Both the position numbers and the translations under genes were made by a program. Below are positions 44,703 through 54,059 of a stretch of DNA of 64,000 nucleotides, in pieces (the stretch's first letter is position 1; every line of letters starts with the position of its first letter). The notes under the pieces were generated by a model that did not search any database, had not been told where the DNA came from, and saw nothing but the letters and a program-made list of their open reading frames with translations. This stretch comes from an uncultured Pseudomonadales bacterium. Its GTDB lineage: Bacteria > Pseudomonadota > Gammaproteobacteria > Pseudomonadales > UBA7239. The stretch is taken from assembly GCA_964403125.1 (NCBI GenBank), contig CAYOEO010000001.1, positions 1,384 through 65,383 of the forward strand, written 5' to 3'.

Positions 44703-45557
44703 ATGCCTGTAAAACCACGCCGCTCCGTTTTATACATGCCTGCCAATAACGCTAGAGCTTTAGAAAAAGCGAAGCAACTGCCCGCCGATTGCATCGTAAT
44801 GGATTTGGAAGATGCTGTTTCGCCCGAAGCGAAAGCCGAGGCTCGACAGCTGGCGATTGCCACCGTGCAAGCGGGTGGTTTTGGTCAGCGTGCAGTGGCG
44901 GTGCGTATCAACGGCGAAGGTACACCGTGGTTTGAGGAAGATTTACAGCAGATTGCTAACAGCGGCGTGCAGATTGTGGTGTTGCCGAAAGTGGAGTCAG
45001 TGGAGACGGTGATTGCTGTAGCTGAACGCTTGTCGCAGGGCGTTCGGCTCTGGGCGATGATAGAGACCCCGCGCGGTGTGATGCAGGTGGATGCCATAGT
45101 TTTTGCCCATCCTGCCTTGGAAGTGTTGGTGATGGGCACTTCAGATTTGGCCAAAGAATTGCGTGTGCCTCATCGCTCAGATAGGGCGGGTTTGCAGTAC
45201 ACCTTGGGGCGTTGTGTGTGTGCGGCACGGGCGGCGGGTTTGGATATCATCGACGGTGTTTACCTCGATTTTCGTGATGAGGTGGGCTTTGCCAACCTCT
45301 GCGAGCAGGGCAAATACTTGGGATTTGATGGCAAATCATTGATTCATCCCAGTCAAATTGATGAGGCCAATCGTGTGTTTTCACCCTCAGTTGAGGAGCT
45401 TGAGCGAGCGGGCAAGGTATTGGAAGCATGGCAGGCTGCGCAGCGCGAAGGCTCAGGTTTGGCAGTGTTGGAGGGCAAGCTGATTGAGAACTTACATGCG
45501 GCAGAAGCAGAGCGAGTTTTGTTGTTATCGCAAGCTATTGCGGCAAACCTAACTTAA
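44703..45557 (+). CDS. HpcH/HpaI aldolase/citrate lyase beta (CitE)-like protein, possible malyl-CoA lyase/thioesterase
   Basis: 284 aa. RSVLYMPANN...MDLEDAV N-terminal motif and the E..RG / DG..L mid-section of CitE-like enzymes. Confidence 0.75.
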   Translation: MPVKPRRSVLYMPANNARALEKAKQLPADCIVMDLEDAVSPEAKAEARQLAIATVQAGGFGQRAVAVRINGEGTPWFEEDLQQIANSGVQIVVLPKVESVETVIAVAERLSQGVRLWAMIETPRGVMQVDAIVFAHPALEVLVMGTSDLAKELRVPHRSDRAGLQYTLGRCVCAARAAGLDIIDGVYLDFRDEVGFANLCEQGKYLGFDGKSLIHPSQIDEANRVFSPSVEELERAGKVLEAWQAAQREGSGLAVLEGKLIENLHAAEAERVLLLSQAIAANLT

Positions 45558-45665
45558 TAAATAAGATTATATTTATATCACAATATATTGTATTTAAATG
45601 TATTTTTAATTTTTATAAATAGTTTCTTTTAGTCATTAGTTACATTAAGTAAATTCTATAACTTT
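45558..45665. other. extremely AT-rich intergenic tract (about 13% G+C by my count) containing a perfect 12-bp palindrome
   Basis: 108 nt between the citE-like stop and the msrA ATG. ACAATATATTGT at 45580-45591 is its own reverse complement. Flanking genes are about 50% G+C. Confidence 0.6.
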
Positions 45666-46304
45666 ATGATAAATAAACAAATAATGGTTTTAGAGCAAGA
45701 TGCGCTGGTCGGGCGTGGCGAAAGTATGCCCGTTCCCGCTTTGCACGCGGTACTACAGGTGCCTATGCAGCCGCTATTCCCAGACGGTTTCCAACTGGCC
45801 TTGTTTGGTATGGGCTGCTTTTGGGGTGCGGAGCGGAAGTTTTGGCAGCAACAAGGGGTTTACACAACGGCGGTTGGCTATGCCGCAGGTTTTACGCCAA
45901 ATCCTTTGTATGAGGAAGTGTGCAGCGGGCTGACAGGGCACAACGAAGTGGTGCTGGTGGTGTTTGATCCTGCCGCCGTCACTTACGAGGCGTTGCTAAA
46001 AGTATTCTGGCAAGGGCACAACCCGACTTTAGGTATGCGTCAAGGCAATGACATCGGCACGCAGTATCGTTCAGGGATTTATTGCTTCGATGCCAGTCAA
46101 CTGCAAGCGGCACTGGCGAGTGCAGAAAAATATCAGCAGGCTTTGAATAGGGTTGGCGTAGGGCAGATTACCACCGAGATTCTGAGTGCGCCGACTTTCT
46201 ATTTTGCCGAGCCTTACCACCAGCAATACCTGGCTAAAAACCCTGCTGGTTACTGTCCCAATATTACTTATCAGGCTACGGGACTGCCGAGCTTCCCATC
46301 CTGA
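45666..46304 (+). CDS. msrA: peptide-methionine (S)-S-oxide reductase
   Basis: 212 aa. GMGCFWGAE active site. The start could be ATG 45684. Confidence 0.9.
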
Positions 46305-47152
46305 ATGTATTGAAAGGCATCCAAGCATTGCGTCATATGTTGGCGCTGCGCAGGGGGAGCGTGTTCGATGAAGCGCGGGTGATAGGCAGTATTGCCGCCA
46401 GCCATATCTAGGTACATCTTGGTTAATTTGGCTAGTTCAGGTAGATCTTCGTCGGCAAAACGCTGTGAGGCGCAGATGCTCATCATTCGGCGATCGGCTT
46501 GCGTATGGTTGGTGGCGTGCTTTAAGCGGTAGTCAAACACCAAGGCATCGCCGGGTTGCGTTGGAATGCTGATGCTAGGCACATCGTCTTTTTCCAGCCC
46601 GAGATGCTGCTCGTGCTTCCACACATAGCGTTCGCAGAGATTGGCAAATTTATCGCCAAATAAATGGCTGCCGGGGATAGCGCGAAAGCCGCCGTTGTTG
46701 GCATCCAGCGGTTCCAAATAGAGCAGAATTTTGACGTGGCGATACTTAAAGAAAGCACCGTATAAATCGGAGTGCCAATAGGTATCGCCAGTGAAAACAT
46801 TGCCGTCACTGGCGCGATACAAGTAATCCTCGCCAAGCAGAGAATTGAATATGCCGCTGATAACAGGGTGTTCCAGCAGGGCAGATAGCTTGGGATCTCG
46901 TTCAATAAATTGCAGCAGAAAGCGGCGTGATTTCATGTAGTGCGCTTCGTGTCGCCAATCGACCACTTCCGATTCGTTTTGATCAAGCAGATGATTAAAA
47001 GTACTTGAGATTTCTTCGATACAGTCTTTCAGCAGACCTGGAATGACTAGATAACCAAAAGTATCAAAAAAGTTTTTTTGTTGACGAGTGAGAATCAGCG
47101 GAGTGGAAGTCATGTGTGTACTCATCGAGCTGGTGGCGCTGCGATTTTGCAA
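46271..47152 (-). CDS. phytanoyl-CoA dioxygenase (PhyH) family Fe(II)/2-oxoglutarate oxygenase
   Basis: 293 aa. WHSD (HxD), [10 protein letters not shown] and distal His in RLKHAT. The start may be Met10 or Met14. Its 3' end overlaps msrA by 34 nt (convergent). Confidence 0.65.
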
Positions 47153-47313
47153 TAGTTGCGATTAGTGATGGATTGATACGGGTCAAACTACCACGCCATA
47201 AAAGGAAACGGCAACCGTTTTTCGTAGCAACACTATGAATTTGCAGGCTTTTATCGCGTTGAATTTGATAGGCGCTTTCGGCATCATGGCTCGCCTTTTT
47301 CTGATTCGAATCG

Positions 47314-48264
47314 ATGTCAACAGAGTCTCTACAGCGCCGTATTGTTGTGACAGGTGCCGCCGGTTTGGTCGGGCAAAACCTGTTATTGCTGTTGAGTGAG
47401 AGGGGCTATCGCAATGTAGTGGCGCTTGATCGTCAGGCCGAGAATCTCGCTATTGCCGCACGTTTGAATCCTTGCGTACAAACTTTGTGCGCAGATTTGG
47501 CAGAAGCAGGGGAGTGGCAGCAAGCCTTTGCTGGTGCGGATGTGGTGATACAACTGCACGCGCAAATTACGGCCGTGCAAGATGCTGTGTTTGAGCGCAA
47601 TAACATCGAAGCCACGCGCCATGTGTTGGCTGCTTGTCAGCAGCACGGCGTGCCGTATTTATTGCATGTCAGCTCCTCGGTTTTACATTCGATGGCGGAT
47701 GACGCTTACACCCGCACCAAGCGCGAGCAAGAAGCGCTTGTTAAACAATCGGGTATCGCACATTGTATTTTGCGCCCCACACTGATGTTCGGTTGGTTTG
47801 ATCCCAAACATTTTGGTTGGCTTTCGCGCTTTATGGAGCGCACGCCCATATTTCCCATCCCTGGTGACGGAAAATTTCTGCGACAGCCCTTATACAACCG
47901 CGATTTTTGTCGCGTGATCTTGGCGTGTTTGGAATCGCAGAGGGCAGGGGCTGCCTATGATATAGTCGGACGCGAAGATATCGACTATGTCTCCATCATC
48001 AAAACGATTCGCGATGTCAAAGCGCTGCAAACAATCATCTTGCATATTCCGTTTGCTTTTTTTGATGTGTTGTTGCGCTTGGCGGCTAAGTTGATGCGTC
48101 AACCACCGTTTACCAGTGCGCAATTACATGCACTGGCGGCGGGGGATTATTTTGTCGGTGTCGATATCGAACAAGAATTTGGTGTAAAGCCGACACCGTT
48201 TATACAAGCAATTCAAGAAACGTTTTTACATCCTATTTATTCATCGATTGTGGTTAAGCGTTAA
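47314..48264 (+). CDS. NAD(P)-dependent atypical SDR (epimerase/dehydratase family)
   Basis: 316 aa. VTGAAGLVGQNL Rossmann motif and YTRTK (YxxxK). Confidence 0.75.
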   Translation: MSTESLQRRIVVTGAAGLVGQNLLLLLSERGYRNVVALDRQAENLAIAARLNPCVQTLCADLAEAGEWQQAFAGADVVIQLHAQITAVQDAVFERNNIEATRHVLAACQQHGVPYLLHVSSSVLHSMADDAYTRTKREQEALVKQSGIAHCILRPTLMFGWFDPKHFGWLSRFMERTPIFPIPGDGKFLRQPLYNRDFCRVILACLESQRAGAAYDIVGREDIDYVSIIKTIRDVKALQTIILHIPFAFFDVLLRLAAKLMRQPPFTSAQLHALAAGDYFVGVDIEQEFGVKPTPFIQAIQETFLHPIYSSIVVKR

Positions 48265-48270
48265 TCAATA

Positions 48271-49563
48271 ATGACAGGTACAACAAAAAAAATTGCTGTT
48301 CTCGGTGGCGGTCCTATGGGCTTGGCTGCTGCATGGCGCTTGCTAAAACAGGGGCATCAAGTCAGTCTGTTTGAAGCAGGTGAACGCTTGGGCGGAATGT
48401 CGGCTTCATTTGATTTTGATGGTCTAGCTATCGAACGGTTTTTTCATTTTTTATGCACAACAGACTACGATTATTTTGAATTGTTAAATGAATTGGGTAT
48501 TGCCGATCAGCTGCGCTGGGTGAATACCCGCATGGGTATGTTTCACCAACAAAAATTGTACAACTGGGGCGAGCCCATCGCGCTGCTAAAATTTCCAAGT
48601 CTGTCTTTGTTAGAGAAAATTCGCTACGCCTTTCAAGTGATGTATTGCAAAAATCTCAAAGATTTTTCTGATTTGGATAAACAAACAGCAACTTCGTGGC
48701 TGAAAAAAATGTTGGGAGAGAGAACGTATTCCATTCTGTGGGAACCGCTGTTATCGTTGAAGTTTTATCAATTCAAAGATGAAGTGTCGGCTGCGTGGAT
48801 AGCTGCTCGCGTGCAGCGCGTCGCGCACAGCAGGCAAAGTCTATTTAAAGAGAAGTTGGGTTATTTAGAGGGAGGCTCGGACGCTTTTCTTCACGCCATA
48901 GAAAAAGCCATTCGTGAAAAGGGCGGAGCTATTCACTTGGGTACGCCAATTGAGCAAGTGCAAGTGAAAGATGGAAAAATTCATGGCTTAAAAATTGGTG
49001 GTGCAACGCACCATTTCGATGCCGCCATTTCAACCATTCCACTGCCTTATATCGCGCGCATCATTCCCGATTTGCCGCAGACGGATTTAGATAAGTTAGC
49101 AGCAATTCGCAATGTCGGTGTGGTGACGGTCAAACTGAAATTGACGCAGTCGCTCACACCGTATTTTTGGCTGAATATCACTGATACTCGTTATGGAATT
49201 CCTGGTGTTATCGAATACACCAATTTGAATCCTCTATCGGATACGGTTGTCTATATTCCGTATTACATGCCGCAAGACAACGCCAAATACAGTTGGGATA
49301 ACGAGCAATTCCGTTTGGAAACGATCAAGTGTTTGCAAGACATCAACCCTGCGTTTGATGAAAGTTGGATTAAGGCGCTGCATGTCTCGCGTTATTTCTA
49401 CGCGCAGCCCGTTTGCACGCCAAACTTTTTAGCCTCATTGCCGTCGATGAAAAGTACCATTGAAGGTTTCTTTATGGCGGATACCAGCTATTACTACCCG
49501 CAAGACCGAGCCATCACTGACAGTATAAAAATGGGAAATCAGTTGGCAGATATGGCTGTATGA
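48271..49563 (+). CDS. FAD/NAD(P)-dependent oxidoreductase (amine oxidase / CrtI / HemY-like fold)
   Basis: 430 aa. IAVLGGGPMGLAAAWRLLKQGHQVSLFEAGERLGG is a dinucleotide-binding GxGxxG + E...GG motif. Confidence 0.75.
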   Translation: MTGTTKKIAVLGGGPMGLAAAWRLLKQGHQVSLFEAGERLGGMSASFDFDGLAIERFFHFLCTTDYDYFELLNELGIADQLRWVNTRMGMFHQQKLYNWGEPIALLKFPSLSLLEKIRYAFQVMYCKNLKDFSDLDKQTATSWLKKMLGERTYSILWEPLLSLKFYQFKDEVSAAWIAARVQRVAHSRQSLFKEKLGYLEGGSDAFLHAIEKAIREKGGAIHLGTPIEQVQVKDGKIHGLKIGGATHHFDAAISTIPLPYIARIIPDLPQTDLDKLAAIRNVGVVTVKLKLTQSLTPYFWLNITDTRYGIPGVIEYTNLNPLSDTVVYIPYYMPQDNAKYSWDNEQFRLETIKCLQDINPAFDESWIKALHVSRYFYAQPVCTPNFLASLPSMKSTIEGFFMADTSYYYPQDRAITDSIKMGNQLADMAV

Positions 49564-50000
49564 ATTTTATTGTTAAAAAAATCCTCGAAGATTTTCTTTC
49601 GCCTCAGTTTATAAAATTCTTTTTTTCTGCACTGATTGCAGCCGCTGTCAATTTTTTAGTGCGATTGGCATTAGATCCGTATGTGGGATATTCCTACGCT
49701 ATTGTTATTGCCTACATTATAGGCACTGTATTTGCTTTTGTTCTTTACCAACGTGAAGTCTTTGGCAATGGTATTCGTCCTCTGTGGCAAGAGATTTTTC
49801 TCTTTATTTTTGTGACGTTGGCTGCGATTGCGCAAACATTGATTGTCAGTGTTGTATTGGCAGATCATTTATTTCCTGCAATCAATTGGTTATGGCATCC
49901 GAAAGAACTGGCCCATATCATTGGTATGGGTGTACCCATGTTCAGCAGTTTTCTCGGGCATAAATACCTAACATTCAGCCAACACACGATTCCCGATTAA
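49560..50000 (+). CDS. GtrA family membrane protein
   Basis: 146 aa, four TM helices. FIKFFFSALIAAAVNF start and a ...GHKYLTF end resemble GtrA-like proteins. Its ATGA start overlaps the upstream stop. Confidence 0.7.
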   Translation: MNFIVKKILEDFLSPQFIKFFFSALIAAAVNFLVRLALDPYVGYSYAIVIAYIIGTVFAFVLYQREVFGNGIRPLWQEIFLFIFVTLAAIAQTLIVSVVLADHLFPAINWLWHPKELAHIIGMGVPMFSSFLGHKYLTFSQHTIPD

Positions 50001-50028
50001 CAGTTTTTATTTATCACAGGAATATTTC

Positions 50029-51579
50029 ATGTTGCACCCACATTTTCATGCTAAAACGCGTCCAAATCATCCTGCCGTTATCATGGCCAGCACAGGCGAA
50101 ACCATTTCGTTTGGTCAATTAGAAGCGCGTTCCAATCAAATCGCCCATCTCATGCGCCATCATGGTTTACAACGTGGCGATCACATGGCATTTTTGTTGG
50201 ACAACCATGTGCGTTTTTTTGATTTGGTGTGGGGTGCTACGCGTGCTGGGTTGTATTTCACGCCGATCAGCTATTACCTGCAACCGGATGAAATTGAATA
50301 CATCATCAATAACTGCCACGCCAAAGTATTGGTGGTGGCTGAAAAATTTGCTGACAAAATCAAACCGATTTTGGACAAAATTCCCGAAGTCAAAGTTTGT
50401 TACATGATTGATGGCGTGCAAGCACCCTTTAACAGTTGGGAAGAAGCAACAGCTGCGATGCCGGCCACGCCGATTGCTGATGAATCCGAAGGGCGTGAGA
50501 TGTTGTATTCCTCAGGCACAACGGGTCGCCCTAAAGGCATTAAGTTTCCGTTGAGTGATGGTGGTTTGGGTGAAGCGCCTGACATTGTGCGCTCTGTTGG
50601 TTTGGCACAGTTCATGGGTGTGAATCACGATACGGTATCGCTTTCGACTTCACCTTTGTATCACTCTGCGCCTTTGGGTTTCGCAACAGGCTGTCATCGC
50701 TTGGGTTCTACCGTTGTTATCATGGAAAAGTTTGATGAAGAAAAATCGCTACAGTTAATTGAGAAATACAAAATTGCGTACAGCCAATGGGTGCCAACCA
50801 TGTTTGTGCGCTTGTTGAAATTGCCAGAAACGGTGCGCCAAAAATACGATGTGTCCAGCATGAAATTTGCTATTCACGGTGCTGCGCCGTGTCCTGCAGA
50901 AGTGAAGCAAAAAATTATGGCGTGGTGGGGGCCTGTGTTGTGGGAGTTTTATTCGGGCTCAGAGCGCAACGGTATTTTTATGGTCAGCCCGCAGGAGTGG
51001 TTGGCACATCCAGGCACGGTTGGCAAATGTGTGGATGCCAAAGTGCATATCGTTGACGACGAAACGGGCGAAGAATTACCCGCTGGGAAAATCGGTACGA
51101 TTTATTGTTCGCAGGGTGCAAACTTCGACTACCACGGCGATACCGATAAGAAAAAATCCATCACTATTCGTGATGGCTGGACCACAATCGGCGATGTGGG
51201 TTATCTCGATGCCAATGGCTATTTATTTTTGACTGATAGAAAGTCTTACATGATTATTTCTGGCGGCGTGAATGTGTACCCACAAGAAACGGAAGACTGT
51301 TTGATTACGCACGACAAAGTTTTTGATGTGGCTGTGTTTGGTGTGCCGCATCCAGAAATGGGAGAAGAAGTGAAAGCGGTGGTGCAGCCAAGACATTGGC
51401 AAGAAGCGGGCCCAGAGTTGGAAAAAGAACTGATCGAGTTTTGTCGTTCAAAAATCAGCGCGATCAAATGCCCGCGCAGTATTGATTTTGAAAAAGAACT
51501 GCCACGCGAAGAAACAGGAAAAATCAAAAAACGCTTAATTAAAGATAAGTACTGGCAGACTGGCAAGGCGATTAACTGA
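50029..51579 (+). CDS. AMP-dependent acyl-CoA synthetase/ligase
   Basis: 516 aa. YSSGTTGRPKGI, GWTTIGDVGYLD and GKIKKRLIKD motifs. Confidence 0.8.
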   Translation: MLHPHFHAKTRPNHPAVIMASTGETISFGQLEARSNQIAHLMRHHGLQRGDHMAFLLDNHVRFFDLVWGATRAGLYFTPISYYLQPDEIEYIINNCHAKVLVVAEKFADKIKPILDKIPEVKVCYMIDGVQAPFNSWEEATAAMPATPIADESEGREMLYSSGTTGRPKGIKFPLSDGGLGEAPDIVRSVGLAQFMGVNHDTVSLSTSPLYHSAPLGFATGCHRLGSTVVIMEKFDEEKSLQLIEKYKIAYSQWVPTMFVRLLKLPETVRQKYDVSSMKFAIHGAAPCPAEVKQKIMAWWGPVLWEFYSGSERNGIFMVSPQEWLAHPGTVGKCVDAKVHIVDDETGEELPAGKIGTIYCSQGANFDYHGDTDKKKSITIRDGWTTIGDVGYLDANGYLFLTDRKSYMIISGGVNVYPQETEDCLITHDKVFDVAVFGVPHPEMGEEVKAVVQPRHWQEAGPELEKELIEFCRSKISAIKCPRSIDFEKELPREETGKIKKRLIKDKYWQTGKAIN

Positions 51580-51592
51580 CGCGGTGTAAGTC

Positions 51593-52240
51593 ATGTCTCG
51601 ACAATCAGATATAGAGCTTGTGTTATTTGATTTTGGTGGTGTCTTTACTGCATCACCTTTTTTTGCCGTGGAAGCAATGGCAAAAGAAATGGCTGTCAAT
51701 GCTGAGAAATTTTCTGAATTGATGTTCGGCGCGTATCATCTCGACACCGAGCATCCGTGGCATCAGTTAGAGCGAGGTGAGCTCAGTTTCGATGCCGCGC
51801 GTGAGCAAATTATTGCCCTGGGCAAGCAAAATAATCTCACTGTCGATCCGTTGGATTTATTGGTGCGTATGGCGAGTGGGCAGTTGATGCAAGAGACGAT
51901 GATAGATGCGTTGCGTGCAGTCAAAGCCGCAGGCTTTGCTACCGGCGTCATCACCAACAATGTGCGCGAGTTCCGCGATGGCTGGCGCGCGTTGATGCCA
52001 GTGGATGAATTGATTGATTGCGTGTTTGATTCCAGCGAGTTAGGTATGCGCAAACCCAATCCTGCTATTTATCAACACGCGCTGCATGCAATGGGTGGCG
52101 TGTCGCCTGCACGCGCTGTATTTTTGGATGATGTGGAACAGAATGTGCTGGCTGCAAAACAACTGGGCATACAGGGCATTCATGTCACACAAAATACACA
52201 AGCGGCTATCGCTGAGCTAAAAACTTTATTGTGTTTGTGA
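51593..52240 (+). CDS. HAD superfamily hydrolase (subfamily IA-like)
   Basis: 215 aa. Motif I LFDFGGVF, motif II ITNN, motif IV FLDDVEQNV. Confidence 0.8.
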   Translation: MSRQSDIELVLFDFGGVFTASPFFAVEAMAKEMAVNAEKFSELMFGAYHLDTEHPWHQLERGELSFDAAREQIIALGKQNNLTVDPLDLLVRMASGQLMQETMIDALRAVKAAGFATGVITNNVREFRDGWRALMPVDELIDCVFDSSELGMRKPNPAIYQHALHAMGGVSPARAVFLDDVEQNVLAAKQLGIQGIHVTQNTQAAIAELKTLLCL

Positions 52241-53041
52241 GTTGCTCTCTGGCAGATAGTCAGCGCCTAAGTACGCTTCAATCACAGCAGGATCTTGTTG
52301 TACTTGCTCCGGTTTTCCTTCTGCAATTTTCTTGCCGTAATCCAGTACCGTGATGTAATCACATAAACCCATCACCAGTTTGACATCGTGTTCAATCAAT
52401 AGCACGGTGATGCCGTCTTGGCGAATACGCAGCAATAATTCGCGCAATTCTTCCGTTTCTGTTGGGTTCATGCCCGCAGCGGGCTCATCTAACGCGAGCA
52501 GGAGTGGTTCAGTGGCGAGTGCGCGGGCAATTTCCAATTTGCGTTGCAAACCGTAGGGCAGGTCAGCTGCGCGTTTATCGTAAATTTGAGTTGGAAGGTC
52601 GACATACTTTAATAATTCAATCGCGCGTTGCTGTATCGCGGCTTCTTCTTTGCGCTCTTGCGAATGTCGCAATACAGCACCCAACGCGCCAGTTTTTGTG
52701 CGCGGATGGCGGCCTATCATCACATTTTCTAAAGCCGTCATATTGCTGAATAAACGAATATTTTGAAAAGTTCTGGCGATACCGTGCTGCACGATACGAT
52801 GCGGCGGCGCGTTCAAAATATCTTGCTCGCGCAGCAATAGTTTTCCTGTGTCTGCTTGATACAGACCGGTCAAAATATTGAACAGTGAAGTTTTGCCCGC
52901 GCCATTGGGGCCGATAATGCCGTAGATGGTTTGCGCAGGCACGCTAAAAGAAACGCCGTCCAATGCGCGTAAACCGCCGAAACTTTTGCCGATATTTTGT
53001 GCTTGCAGCAGTGGAGCGTTTTGCATATCAACGGCTACCAA
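52226..53041 (-). CDS. livG: branched-chain amino acid ABC transporter ATP-binding protein (LivG type)
   Basis: 271 aa. GPNGAGKTS Walker A, LPYGLQRKLEIARAL signature region, LLALDEPAAG Walker B. Confidence 0.85.
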   Translation of the reverse strand: MVAVDMQNAPLLQAQNIGKSFGGLRALDGVSFSVPAQTIYGIIGPNGAGKTSLFNILTGLYQADTGKLLLREQDILNAPPHRIVQHGIARTFQNIRLFSNMTALENVMIGRHPRTKTGALGAVLRHSQERKEEAAIQQRAIELLKYVDLPTQIYDKRAADLPYGLQRKLEIARALATEPLLLALDEPAAGMNPTETEELRELLLRIRQDGITVLLIEHDVKLVMGLCDYITVLDYGKKIAEGKPEQVQQDPAVIEAYLGADYLPESNSQTQ

Positions 53042-54059
53042 AACGCGCAGGCCACAGGCCTTGCGGCTTGTACAGCATGGTGGCGACGAGGGTTACACCA
53101 AACAACAACATGCGCAGGTTTTCTGGATCAATAATCACGCGCCCCATCAACGCTCTTTGCGCAGGAATGGCGAGATCGCGAAATAGTTCTGGTGTAATCG
53201 TCAATAACACCGCACCAAGAATCACGCCCGCAATATTGCCCATGCCACCTAGAACCACCATGCACAACACCATGATAGATTCGATCAGCGTAAAGCTTTC
53301 TGGGCTGACAAAGCCTTGGAAACCAGAGAACAAACCGCCGGCCACGCCGCCAAAAGATGCACCCATCGCAAACGCTAATAATTTGATATTGCGCGTGTTG
53401 ATGCCGCAGGCTTTGGCTGCCATTTCATCTTCGCGAATTGCCATCCATGCGCGCCCAATGCGCGAGTTTTGCAAACGGATAGAAATAAAAATGACGACAC
53501 AAGCGAGCAACAAAAATAAGTAGTAGTAAAAGTAAACAGAAGTGATGCGCAAACCAAAAATAGAAAAGGATATTGCGGGAAACAGAGGATCAATCAAATT
53601 GATGCCTTGCGGGCCGTTGGTCAAATTAAACGGTCTGTCTAAGTTGTTCATAAACAAACGCACAATTTCGCCAAAGCCTAAAGTGACTATTGCCAAATAA
53701 TCACCGCGCAAACGCAAAGTCGGTGCGCCCAACAACACACCAAAAAATCCAGCAACGACTGCACCCAAAGGCAAAATCACAAAAGGCGACCAATGCAAAC
53801 CCAAATGCGGCGAAGCAAGCAGAGCGTACAAATACGCGCCGATGGCGTAAAACGCGATGTAGCCGAGATCCAACAACCCCGCGTAACCGACCACGATATT
53901 CAAGCCCAGCGCGAGCATGGCGTAGAGCAGCACAAAATCCAGTGTGCGCACCCAACCACTGCCGAGCGTCATGCCGGTGAGTAGGGGCAGCAACAGGGCG
54001 GCAGTCAATACCACCAAGGCATAGCCCATCCAAATGCGGCGAGGGATGGCAGTAGACAT
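53028..54059 (-). CDS. livM: branched-chain amino acid ABC transporter permease (LivM type)
   Basis: 343 aa, polytopic. Overlaps livG by 14 nt and abuts livH. Confidence 0.85.
   Translation of the reverse strand: MSTAIPRRIWMGYALVVLTAALLLPLLTGMTLGSGWVRTLDFVLLYAMLALGLNIVVGYAGLLDLGYIAFYAIGAYLYALLASPHLGLHWSPFVILPLGAVVAGFFGVLLGAPTLRLRGDYLAIVTLGFGEIVRLFMNNLDRPFNLTNGPQGINLIDPLFPAISFSIFGLRITSVYFYYYLFLLLACVVIFISIRLQNSRIGRAWMAIREDEMAAKACGINTRNIKLLAFAMGASFGGVAGGLFSGFQGFVSPESFTLIESIMVLCMVVLGGMGNIAGVILGAVLLTITPELFRDLAIPAQRALMGRVIIDPENLRMLLFGVTLVATMLYKPQGLWPARFGSR

Follow-up and report, generated by a model that had tools for sequence, protein, structure and literature searches.

Lipid-linked pentofuranoses are made by a three-component pathway consisting of a phosphoribosyl pyrophosphate (PRPP)-dependent polyprenyl-phosphoribose synthase (PPPRS) with a haloacid dehalogenase (HAD) phosphatase, a small flippase and a GT136 glycosyltransferase with the GT-C fold (Kelly et al. 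2024, PMC11127046). In Citrobacter youngae O1/O2, these parts are ORF15 (PPPRS-PRP), ORF14 (flippase) and ORF12 (GT-C/GT136), accompanied by ORF13, an epimerase of the short-chain dehydrogenase/reductase (SDR) type (PMC11127046). Auxiliary epimerases diversify the sugar, DprE1/DprE2 producing arabinofuranose (Araf) and the SDR ORF13 producing xylofuranose (Xylf) (PMC11127046). "More elaborate systems" with several epimerases, flavin adenine dinucleotide (FAD)-dependent oxidoreductases and GT-C enzymes occur in Xanthomonas and Bacillus and have been left unexplored (PMC11127046; PMC11194591). The locus described here lies in a 64,000-nucleotide stretch of DNA (the window) from an uncultured Pseudomonadales bacterium (GCA_964403125.1, contig CAYOEO010000001.1, positions 1,384 to 65,383), in which three adjacent genes at 47314-50000 encode an atypical SDR (SDRe), a flavoprotein (FADox) and a GtrA-family membrane protein. 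This triad very probably belongs to the polyprenyl-phosphate pentofuranose pathway, and it is likely to be an accessory module for the production of a pentofuranose donor, acting by the steps set out below. The pathway type is already known from the 2024 work, and the redox pair is its uncharacterised add-on. New here are the triad as a detached unit and the division of the flavoprotein family NF005560 into a triad-type and a distant subfamily, both tied to glycan loci.

SDRe (47314..48264, plus strand) is an extended, atypical SDR of 316 residues belonging to the epimerase/dehydratase family (PF01370, 81.7 bits). FADox (48271..49563, plus strand) is a soluble flavoprotein of 430 residues with Amino_oxidase (PF01593, 108 bits) and NAD_binding_8 domains. 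GtrA (49560..50000, plus strand) is a small membrane protein of 146 residues with a PF04138 domain (50.7 bits against a cut-off of 26.1) and 3-4 hydrophobic segments, and its start shares 4 nt with the FADox stop. Neither SDRe nor FADox has a signal peptide or a transmembrane anchor, suggesting that both act in the cytoplasm or at the inner membrane face. The TGAAGLVG motif, D39, S121 and Y132xxxK136 are kept across 33 members of the SDRe family. With its Ser/Tyr/Lys triad and NAD-binding motif retained, SDRe is predicted to be catalytically intact and is the NAD(P)-dependent partner of FADox.

A pattern scan covering one genome for each prokaryotic species yielded at least 546 confirmed relatives of FADox. 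A distant sample of 72 loci outside the window's family, with FADox orthologues at 47-53% identity, spans Xanthomonadales, Beggiatoaceae, Halieaceae, Vibrio, Alpha- and Betaproteobacteria, the Bacillota genera Paenibacillus and Cohnella, and Planctomycetota. In this sample SDRe lies immediately upstream of FADox in 58 loci and GtrA immediately downstream in 48, and both are in place around FADox in 45, so that the SDR-flavoprotein-GtrA triad, whose conservation as a unit had been proposed as a check, does travel together far outside the window's lineage. No longer fused form of FADox was found in a search, which is weak evidence. Closer to the window, nine loci fetched from the same family retain the order SDR, flavoprotein, GtrA, ligase, and most of them are flanked by PhyH, msrA, HAD and livG. 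At this locus the triad stands apart from both the synthase/DprE operon and the GT-C genes, and this detachment from the rest of the pathway indicates an independent three-gene unit. A different arrangement is seen in eight Beggiatoaceae/Thiomargarita loci, where GtrA is replaced by a methyltransferase and a 115-residue membrane protein that lacks Pfam matches and has 3-6 hydrophobic segments, followed by GT-C-like genes. No UbiA or DprE gene lies within 8 kb in these loci.

The open reading frames (ORFs) neighbouring the triad loci were clustered and their representatives annotated, false antisense calls in GC-rich loci (such as c18_699, opposite DprE1) being discarded, and a tblastn search of the 8 kb on either side gave the partner counts. 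A UbiA prenyltransferase carrying a fused HAD domain recurs beside the triad, as do a DprE1-like protein with a FAD_binding_4 domain, a DprE2-like classical SDR of 245 residues (adh_short), a class I methyltransferase and several families of membrane proteins with 8-13 hydrophobic segments. Of the 72 distant loci, 44 have UbiA(-HAD), 46 a DprE1-like gene, 49 a DprE2-like gene and 23 a methyltransferase, and at least 25 encode polytopic GT-C-like proteins. The SDRe/FADox pair usually has DprE2 on one side and the flippase on the other, and it overlaps GtrA by 4 nt. In Burkholderia stagnalis (NZ_CP156687), one overlapping operon that bears generic names throughout in RefSeq runs in the order hypothetical protein of 811 residues, methyltransferase, UbiA, FAD-binding oxidoreductase, SDR, SDR, NAD(P)/FAD oxidoreductase and GtrA.

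At the genome level, NF005560 passes its cut-off in 16 of 300 Gammaproteobacteria sampled at 90% completeness or better, and inspection of the loci separates two subfamilies. The triad-type FADox shows 46-47% identity in four fetched loci with SDRe and/or GtrA adjacent, and five more genomes were assigned to this type by family-model E-values of 1e-161 to 1e-168, giving nine in total. PPPRS and DprE1-like genes are both present in eight of these nine, the flavoprotein of the ninth lying on a 3.4-kb contig. The other 291 genomes include 41 with PPPRS and 43 with a DprE1-like gene (Fisher p ~2e-6, the related genomes not being independent). These background counts include two genomes without FADox, whose removal leaves the result unchanged. 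The triad and the PPPRS genes are on different contigs in two of the eight genomes. A first-pass annotation of this DNA had connected the genes with DprE1/DprE2/GtrA-like chemistry on polyprenyl-phosphate sugars, and both neighbourhood and genome co-occurrence uphold this.

The first-pass annotation had also regarded the flavoprotein/SDR pair as a functional analogue of DprE1/DprE2, and the combination of an oxidase and a reductase with an adjacent GtrA does mirror Rv3790, Rv3791 and Rv3789. It is nevertheless highly improbable that the pair is a non-homologous replacement catalysing the C2 epimerisation of ribofuranose to arabinofuranose, because true DprE1 and DprE2 homologues accompany the pair in 46 and 49 of the 72 distant loci, in eight of the nine sampled genomes and in 11 of 12 relatives from the window's genus. 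The two sets of enzymes also differ in domain composition. FADox has no FAD_binding_4 match and so does not belong with the DprE1 proteins of the vanillyl-alcohol oxidase (VAO) type, whereas the true DprE1-like proteins of these clusters have PF01565, which bears out the earlier remark that the flavoprotein fold is unlike that of DprE1. DprE2 is an adh_short protein of about 250 residues, while the 316-residue SDRe reaches only 17.4 bits against the adh_short cut-off of 26.6. Eight loci that are PPPRS-positive and DprE1-negative have no orthologue of SDRe, FADox or GtrA nearby. The tracking of DprE1 loci and the absence from DprE1-free loci together suggest that the pair is an optional extension of the arabinofuranose branch and not a substitute for DprE1/DprE2. 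The substrate, originally called open, is most likely a PRPP-derived polyprenyl-phosphate pentofuranose.

A mechanism can be outlined on this basis. At the cytoplasmic face, the UbiA-type phosphoribosyltransferase with its fused HAD phosphatase and the DprE1-/DprE2-like enzymes would convert PRPP through polyprenyl-P-ribofuranose to polyprenyl-P-arabinofuranose. FADox and SDRe would then carry out one further oxidation and reduction on the sugar head-group, possibly a second epimerisation at C3, or at C4 via a C5 aldehyde, and the product would be a donor other than arabinofuranose. The translationally coupled GtrA, presumed to be a flippase or a membrane hub for polyprenyl-phosphate sugar, would flip the donor across the membrane or pass it on, and GT-C-fold transferases encoded elsewhere in the genome would use it outside the inner membrane. 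By its PF04138 domain, GtrA corresponds to the small flippase of the three-component system, and glycosylation in E. coli requires the GtrA-like protein 6247 of Pseudomonas paraeruginosa, which has DprE2 and the GT-C enzyme TfpW as interaction partners (bioRxiv 10.1101/2020.04.19.049825). The data themselves establish that the module is conserved, which genes accompany it and what the folds are; from these we infer the order of steps, the kind of product and a sugar instead of a lipid target. The sugar head-group is favoured because the pair tracks DprE1/DprE2 systems, sits between DprE2 and the flippase, and has distant FADox relatives in glycan loci. The most economical mechanism, a second oxidise-then-reduce step on polyprenyl-P-Araf giving an epimer or another tailored pentofuranose for export by GtrA, has slightly less than an even chance of being correct. 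More tentatively, the pair may turn polyprenyl-P-D-arabinofuranose into a pentofuranose that is new as a donor, such as D-lyxofuranose by C3 inversion or a sugar of the L-series such as L-xylofuranose by C5 oxidation, C4 epimerisation and re-reduction. In the window's family, with its scattered, vertically conserved genes and 4-7 GT-C paralogues per ~2.3-Mb genome, this donor might serve a core envelope glycan instead of decorating a variable O-antigen. Nothing relevant to the biosynthesis of L-xylose came out of a literature search.

ORF13 alone suffices for an epimerisation at C3 (PMC11127046), which speaks for an alternative in which SDRe is a self-contained epimerase like C. youngae ORF13 and FADox is a mutase or isomerase resembling UDP-galactopyranose mutase (UGM) that changes the ring form or the anomeric linkage. 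SDRe does align over its full length, at 24% identity, with the ORF13-like SDR encoded beside a PPPRS gene in the DprE1-free locus L139, and FADox gives profile matches to the UGM structures 1i8t (E 5.5e-7) and 4dsg. These UGM matches are weak, as are the sequence-level matches of FADox in the Protein Data Bank (PDB) generally; they cover mainly the N-terminal dinucleotide-binding part (residues 9-172 only for 1i8t), and no UGM is among the 50 best Foldseek matches of FADox. Furthermore, SDRe is 13 residues shorter than the L139 enzyme between the catalytic Ser and Tyr, and SDRe without FADox was never encountered in the examined loci. The low identity and the deletion argue that the pair is not the known Xylf epimerase, and the mutase alternative is unlikely. 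Locus L139 itself (G142:C2, 8651-11545) encodes an SMR transporter, an extended SDR and a HAD-UbiA protein without DprE1/DprE2, a layout like that of the C. youngae O2 xylofuranose system, and the adjoining gene encodes a 658-residue protein with an FGE-sulfatase-like domain.

FADox is a member of NF005560/PRK07233 (507.5 bits against a curated cut-off of 252, over residues 7-428 of 430), a flavoprotein family that is curated in NCBIfam as "hypothetical protein". The first-pass annotation had reserved its case for the event that the flavoprotein should belong to a known pathway, such as carotenoid desaturation or haem synthesis. FADox lies under every NCBIfam cut-off for the carotenoid families (crtI_fam, 33.9 against 238; Phytoene_desat, 56.9 against 569) and for the haem and hopanoid families (proto_IX_ox, 50.9 against 97.85; HpnE, 90.5 against 283). 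The distant subfamily of NF005560, seen in four inspected loci, has 25-31% identity to FADox and no SDRe or GtrA. Its neighbours are GT2, LPG_synthase_TM, nucleotidyltransferase, hexapeptide acetyltransferase and polysaccharide deacetylase genes, and the SDRs nearby are of the 4,6-dehydratase (GDP-mannose-dehydratase) type. This looks like a second, different glycan-related role, and the presence of distant relatives in glycan loci points to sugar and away from isoprenoid chemistry. One genome of the window's own family has the distant type only. Among control genomes, Haloferax volcanii and Methanosarcina acetivorans each carry one NF005560 member above the cut-off.

Several observations weigh against the proposed role of the triad, and those on the flavoprotein concern its predicted structure. 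The AlphaFold2 model of FADox (pLDDT 89.5) indicates a fold of the phytoene-desaturase/protoporphyrinogen-oxidase type. Its top Foldseek match in the PDB is rice phytoene desaturase (PDS; 5mog, TM 0.80), an enzyme of isoprenoid chains, followed by protoporphyrinogen oxidases and amine oxidases. The oxidation of an alcohol is unusual in the amine-oxidase fold, and isoprenoids are the substrates of many of its members. Since the closest structure acts on isoprenoid chains, a lipid target has to be considered, in which FADox and SDRe would saturate, desaturate or isomerise the polyprenyl chain to give a dedicated pentofuranose carrier, by analogy with the route from polyprenol to dolichol. The nearest named NCBIfam matches point the same way, being the hopanoid-associated HpnE and HpnA and the lipid-acting OleD, albeit all far under their cut-offs. 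However, neither a cis-prenyltransferase nor a polyprenol kinase is among the recurrent neighbours, the distant FADox relatives lie amid nucleotide-sugar and glycosyltransferase genes, and the pair is absent from the eight DprE1-free PPPRS loci, which would use the same carrier lipid. Modification of the lipid instead of the sugar is accordingly held to be improbable. In addition, no experiment or curated annotation gives SDRe or FADox a reaction, and look-alikes in the ESM Atlas gave generic names only.

Other points against a sugar-modifying module concern the synthase genes of the window's lineage. A PPPRS or DprE1 gene was not found in the metagenome-assembled genome (MAG) to which the window belongs (1.29 Mb, 64% complete). 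The genes that flank the operon elsewhere are missing from it as well, indicating that this region falls in the unassembled third, so that the absence is uninformative and not contradictory. Likewise, one genus relative that has the triad (G006, 98% complete) has no detectable PPPRS or DprE1 gene, and the flank marker is also missing there. In favour of the module, an operon of UbiA-HAD, DprE1-like and DprE2-like genes is present in 11 of 12 genus relatives, apart from the triad and among unrelated housekeeping genes; the distance to the triad is ~1 Mb in G011, a near-closed genome. The nearest named relatives of the MAG are "Pseudomonadales" and "Cellvibrionales" MAGs. Near-identical DNA occurs in public wetland, soil and wastewater metagenome runs, and no RNA run is among those listed.

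A candidate transferase for the donor is encoded in the same genome. The profile of the largest triad-linked membrane-protein family detects four paralogues in the own genome (G000), which is ~2.3 Mb when complete, and 5-7 in relatives. The four lie at C19:26547-27545 (L131), C6:17347-18492, C26:7575-8585 and C32:4218-4883 and have no Pfam match, and the family profile found nothing in the PDB by sequence. The AlphaFold model of the C19 paralogue (L131:1420-3174; pLDDT 73.6) has a C-terminal beta-sandwich domain. Plain Foldseek of this model gave weak GT-C matches only, and after VIA-align re-ranking the 23 best matches are all GT-C proteins (Z 7.3-13.1), with ALG12, Pmt4, ArnT, STT3, EmbB, AftA, AftB, PglB and DPY19 among the matches. 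Such Z values can also arise by chance among helical membrane proteins, so that what counts is how uniform the match list is. On this model, the paralogues outside the window are predicted to provide the GT-C-fold transferase of the pathway. This agrees with the earlier statement that the flagged region has no glycosyltransferase, the GT-C-like paralogues being on other contigs. The C19 copy adjoins a sulfatase gene. In five Xanthomonadales-like loci, RgpF-type rhamnan synthesis proteins (PF05045, 473 bits; L053, 11950-13902) recur by the triad, and the acceptor there may be a rhamnan O-antigen.

The remaining observation against the triad as the functional unit concerns the genes around it. 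Downstream of GtrA on the plus strand are an acyl-CoA ligase (50029..51579; AMP-binding, 213 bits, plus AMP-binding_C), which resembles FadD4 below the cut-off (586 bits against 850), and a HAD-IA phosphatase (51593..52240; TIGR02247, 117.6 bits against 125.4) similar to the phosphatase domain at the N-terminus of epoxide hydrolase. A PhyH-family Fe(II)/2-oxoglutarate dioxygenase (46271..47152, minus strand; PF05721, 58 bits) is divergent from the triad. The intergenic gaps from SDRe through FADox, GtrA and the ligase to HAD are 6, -4, 28 and 13 nt, and the divergent region of 161 bp (47153..47313) presumably holds the promoters of the SDRe operon and of PhyH. The coordinates, gaps and divergent region in the first-pass annotation were reproduced exactly by the ORF list, and its six domain calls hold in Pfam and NCBIfam. 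Promoter-like and terminator-like matches across 45500-53200 are no more frequent than expected from shuffled sequence, 47153-47313 yielded no call of a consensus sigma-70 site, and no terminator was called between GtrA and the ligase. The convergent genes msrA/PhyH overlap at their 3' ends by 34 nt (46271-46304) and HAD/livG by 15 nt (52226-52240), so that space for terminators is absent at these ends.

The ligase adjoins GtrA in all nine family loci fetched, in at least three genera and down to 60% FADox identity. Such kept adjacency could reflect a real functional link, and the ligase is possibly co-transcribed with the triad. All six genes had been read as one cluster with possible acyl activation, and a pathway can be imagined in which the triad product is joined to an activated, perhaps isoprenoid, fatty acid by the ligase, with HAD and PhyH taking further steps, or in which a phytol-type isoprenoid is degraded. 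The small gaps of 28 and 13 nt, the lack of a called terminator between GtrA and the ligase and the resemblance of HAD to a lipid-phosphate phosphatase domain speak for such a scheme. It is nevertheless quite unlikely, because ligase, HAD and PhyH (the last tested at >100 bits) occur in none of the 72 distant loci, HAD is missing between the ligase and livG in two genus members, GtrA and the ligase have an additional ORF between them in two loci (L004 and L017), and ligase homologues elsewhere in the order are linked neither to HAD nor to the triad. PhyH is syntenic in six family loci and absent from two others. Therefore the conserved entity is the triad and not the six-gene set, and the ligase, HAD and PhyH are probably neighbours specific to the window's bacterial family that take no part in the triad chemistry. 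As the flanking genes do not follow the triad outside the family, acyl activation is left without comparative support. Catabolism of phytol or isoprenoids by PhyH, ligase, SDR and flavoprotein was rejected on the same ground.

Polyprenyl-phosphate pentofuranose donors underlie the mycobacterial arabinan, which is a drug target, and, according to the 2024 work, many Gram-negative surface glycans. The flavoprotein/SDR pair accompanies the DprE1/DprE2 branch of this chemistry in hundreds of species from several phyla, and knowing what the pair catalyses would give glycobiology and glycoengineering a new enzyme pair and a further lipid-linked sugar donor.

Compared with the C. youngae system, the pathway of the triad has in common a UbiA-type synthase with a fused HAD domain, a small flippase, GT-C transferases and auxiliary redox enzymes whose substrate is a polyprenyl-phosphate pentofuranose. 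It differs in that the flippase is a GtrA protein and not of the ORF14 type, and in that the auxiliary enzymes are DprE1/DprE2 plus the added flavoprotein/SDR pair. Moreover, in the window's genus the triad, the synthase operon and the GT-C genes are at separate loci, the synthase operon not having been recovered in the own incomplete genome. The decaprenyl-phospho-arabinose pathway of Corynebacterineae comprises Rv3806c, Rv3807c, DprE1 (Rv3790), DprE2 (Rv3791) and the GtrA-like Rv3789. With this pathway and the D-Araf pilin pathway of P. paraeruginosa (PsPA7_6245-6251), the triad shares an oxidase and a reductase beside a GtrA-like protein, and a lipid-linked pentofuranose. In contrast, FADox has the amine-oxidase/PDS fold where DprE1 has the VAO/FAD_binding_4 fold, SDRe is an extended epimerase-type SDR where DprE2 is a classical short one, and the pair occurs in addition to DprE1/DprE2. 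With PDS, protoporphyrinogen oxidase and HpnE, FADox shares its overall fold (TM 0.72-0.80) and FAD-binding motif as well as a site of action at the membrane periphery, whereas its genomic context is glycan synthesis, and not the pigment, haem or hopanoid synthesis in which those enzymes are found.

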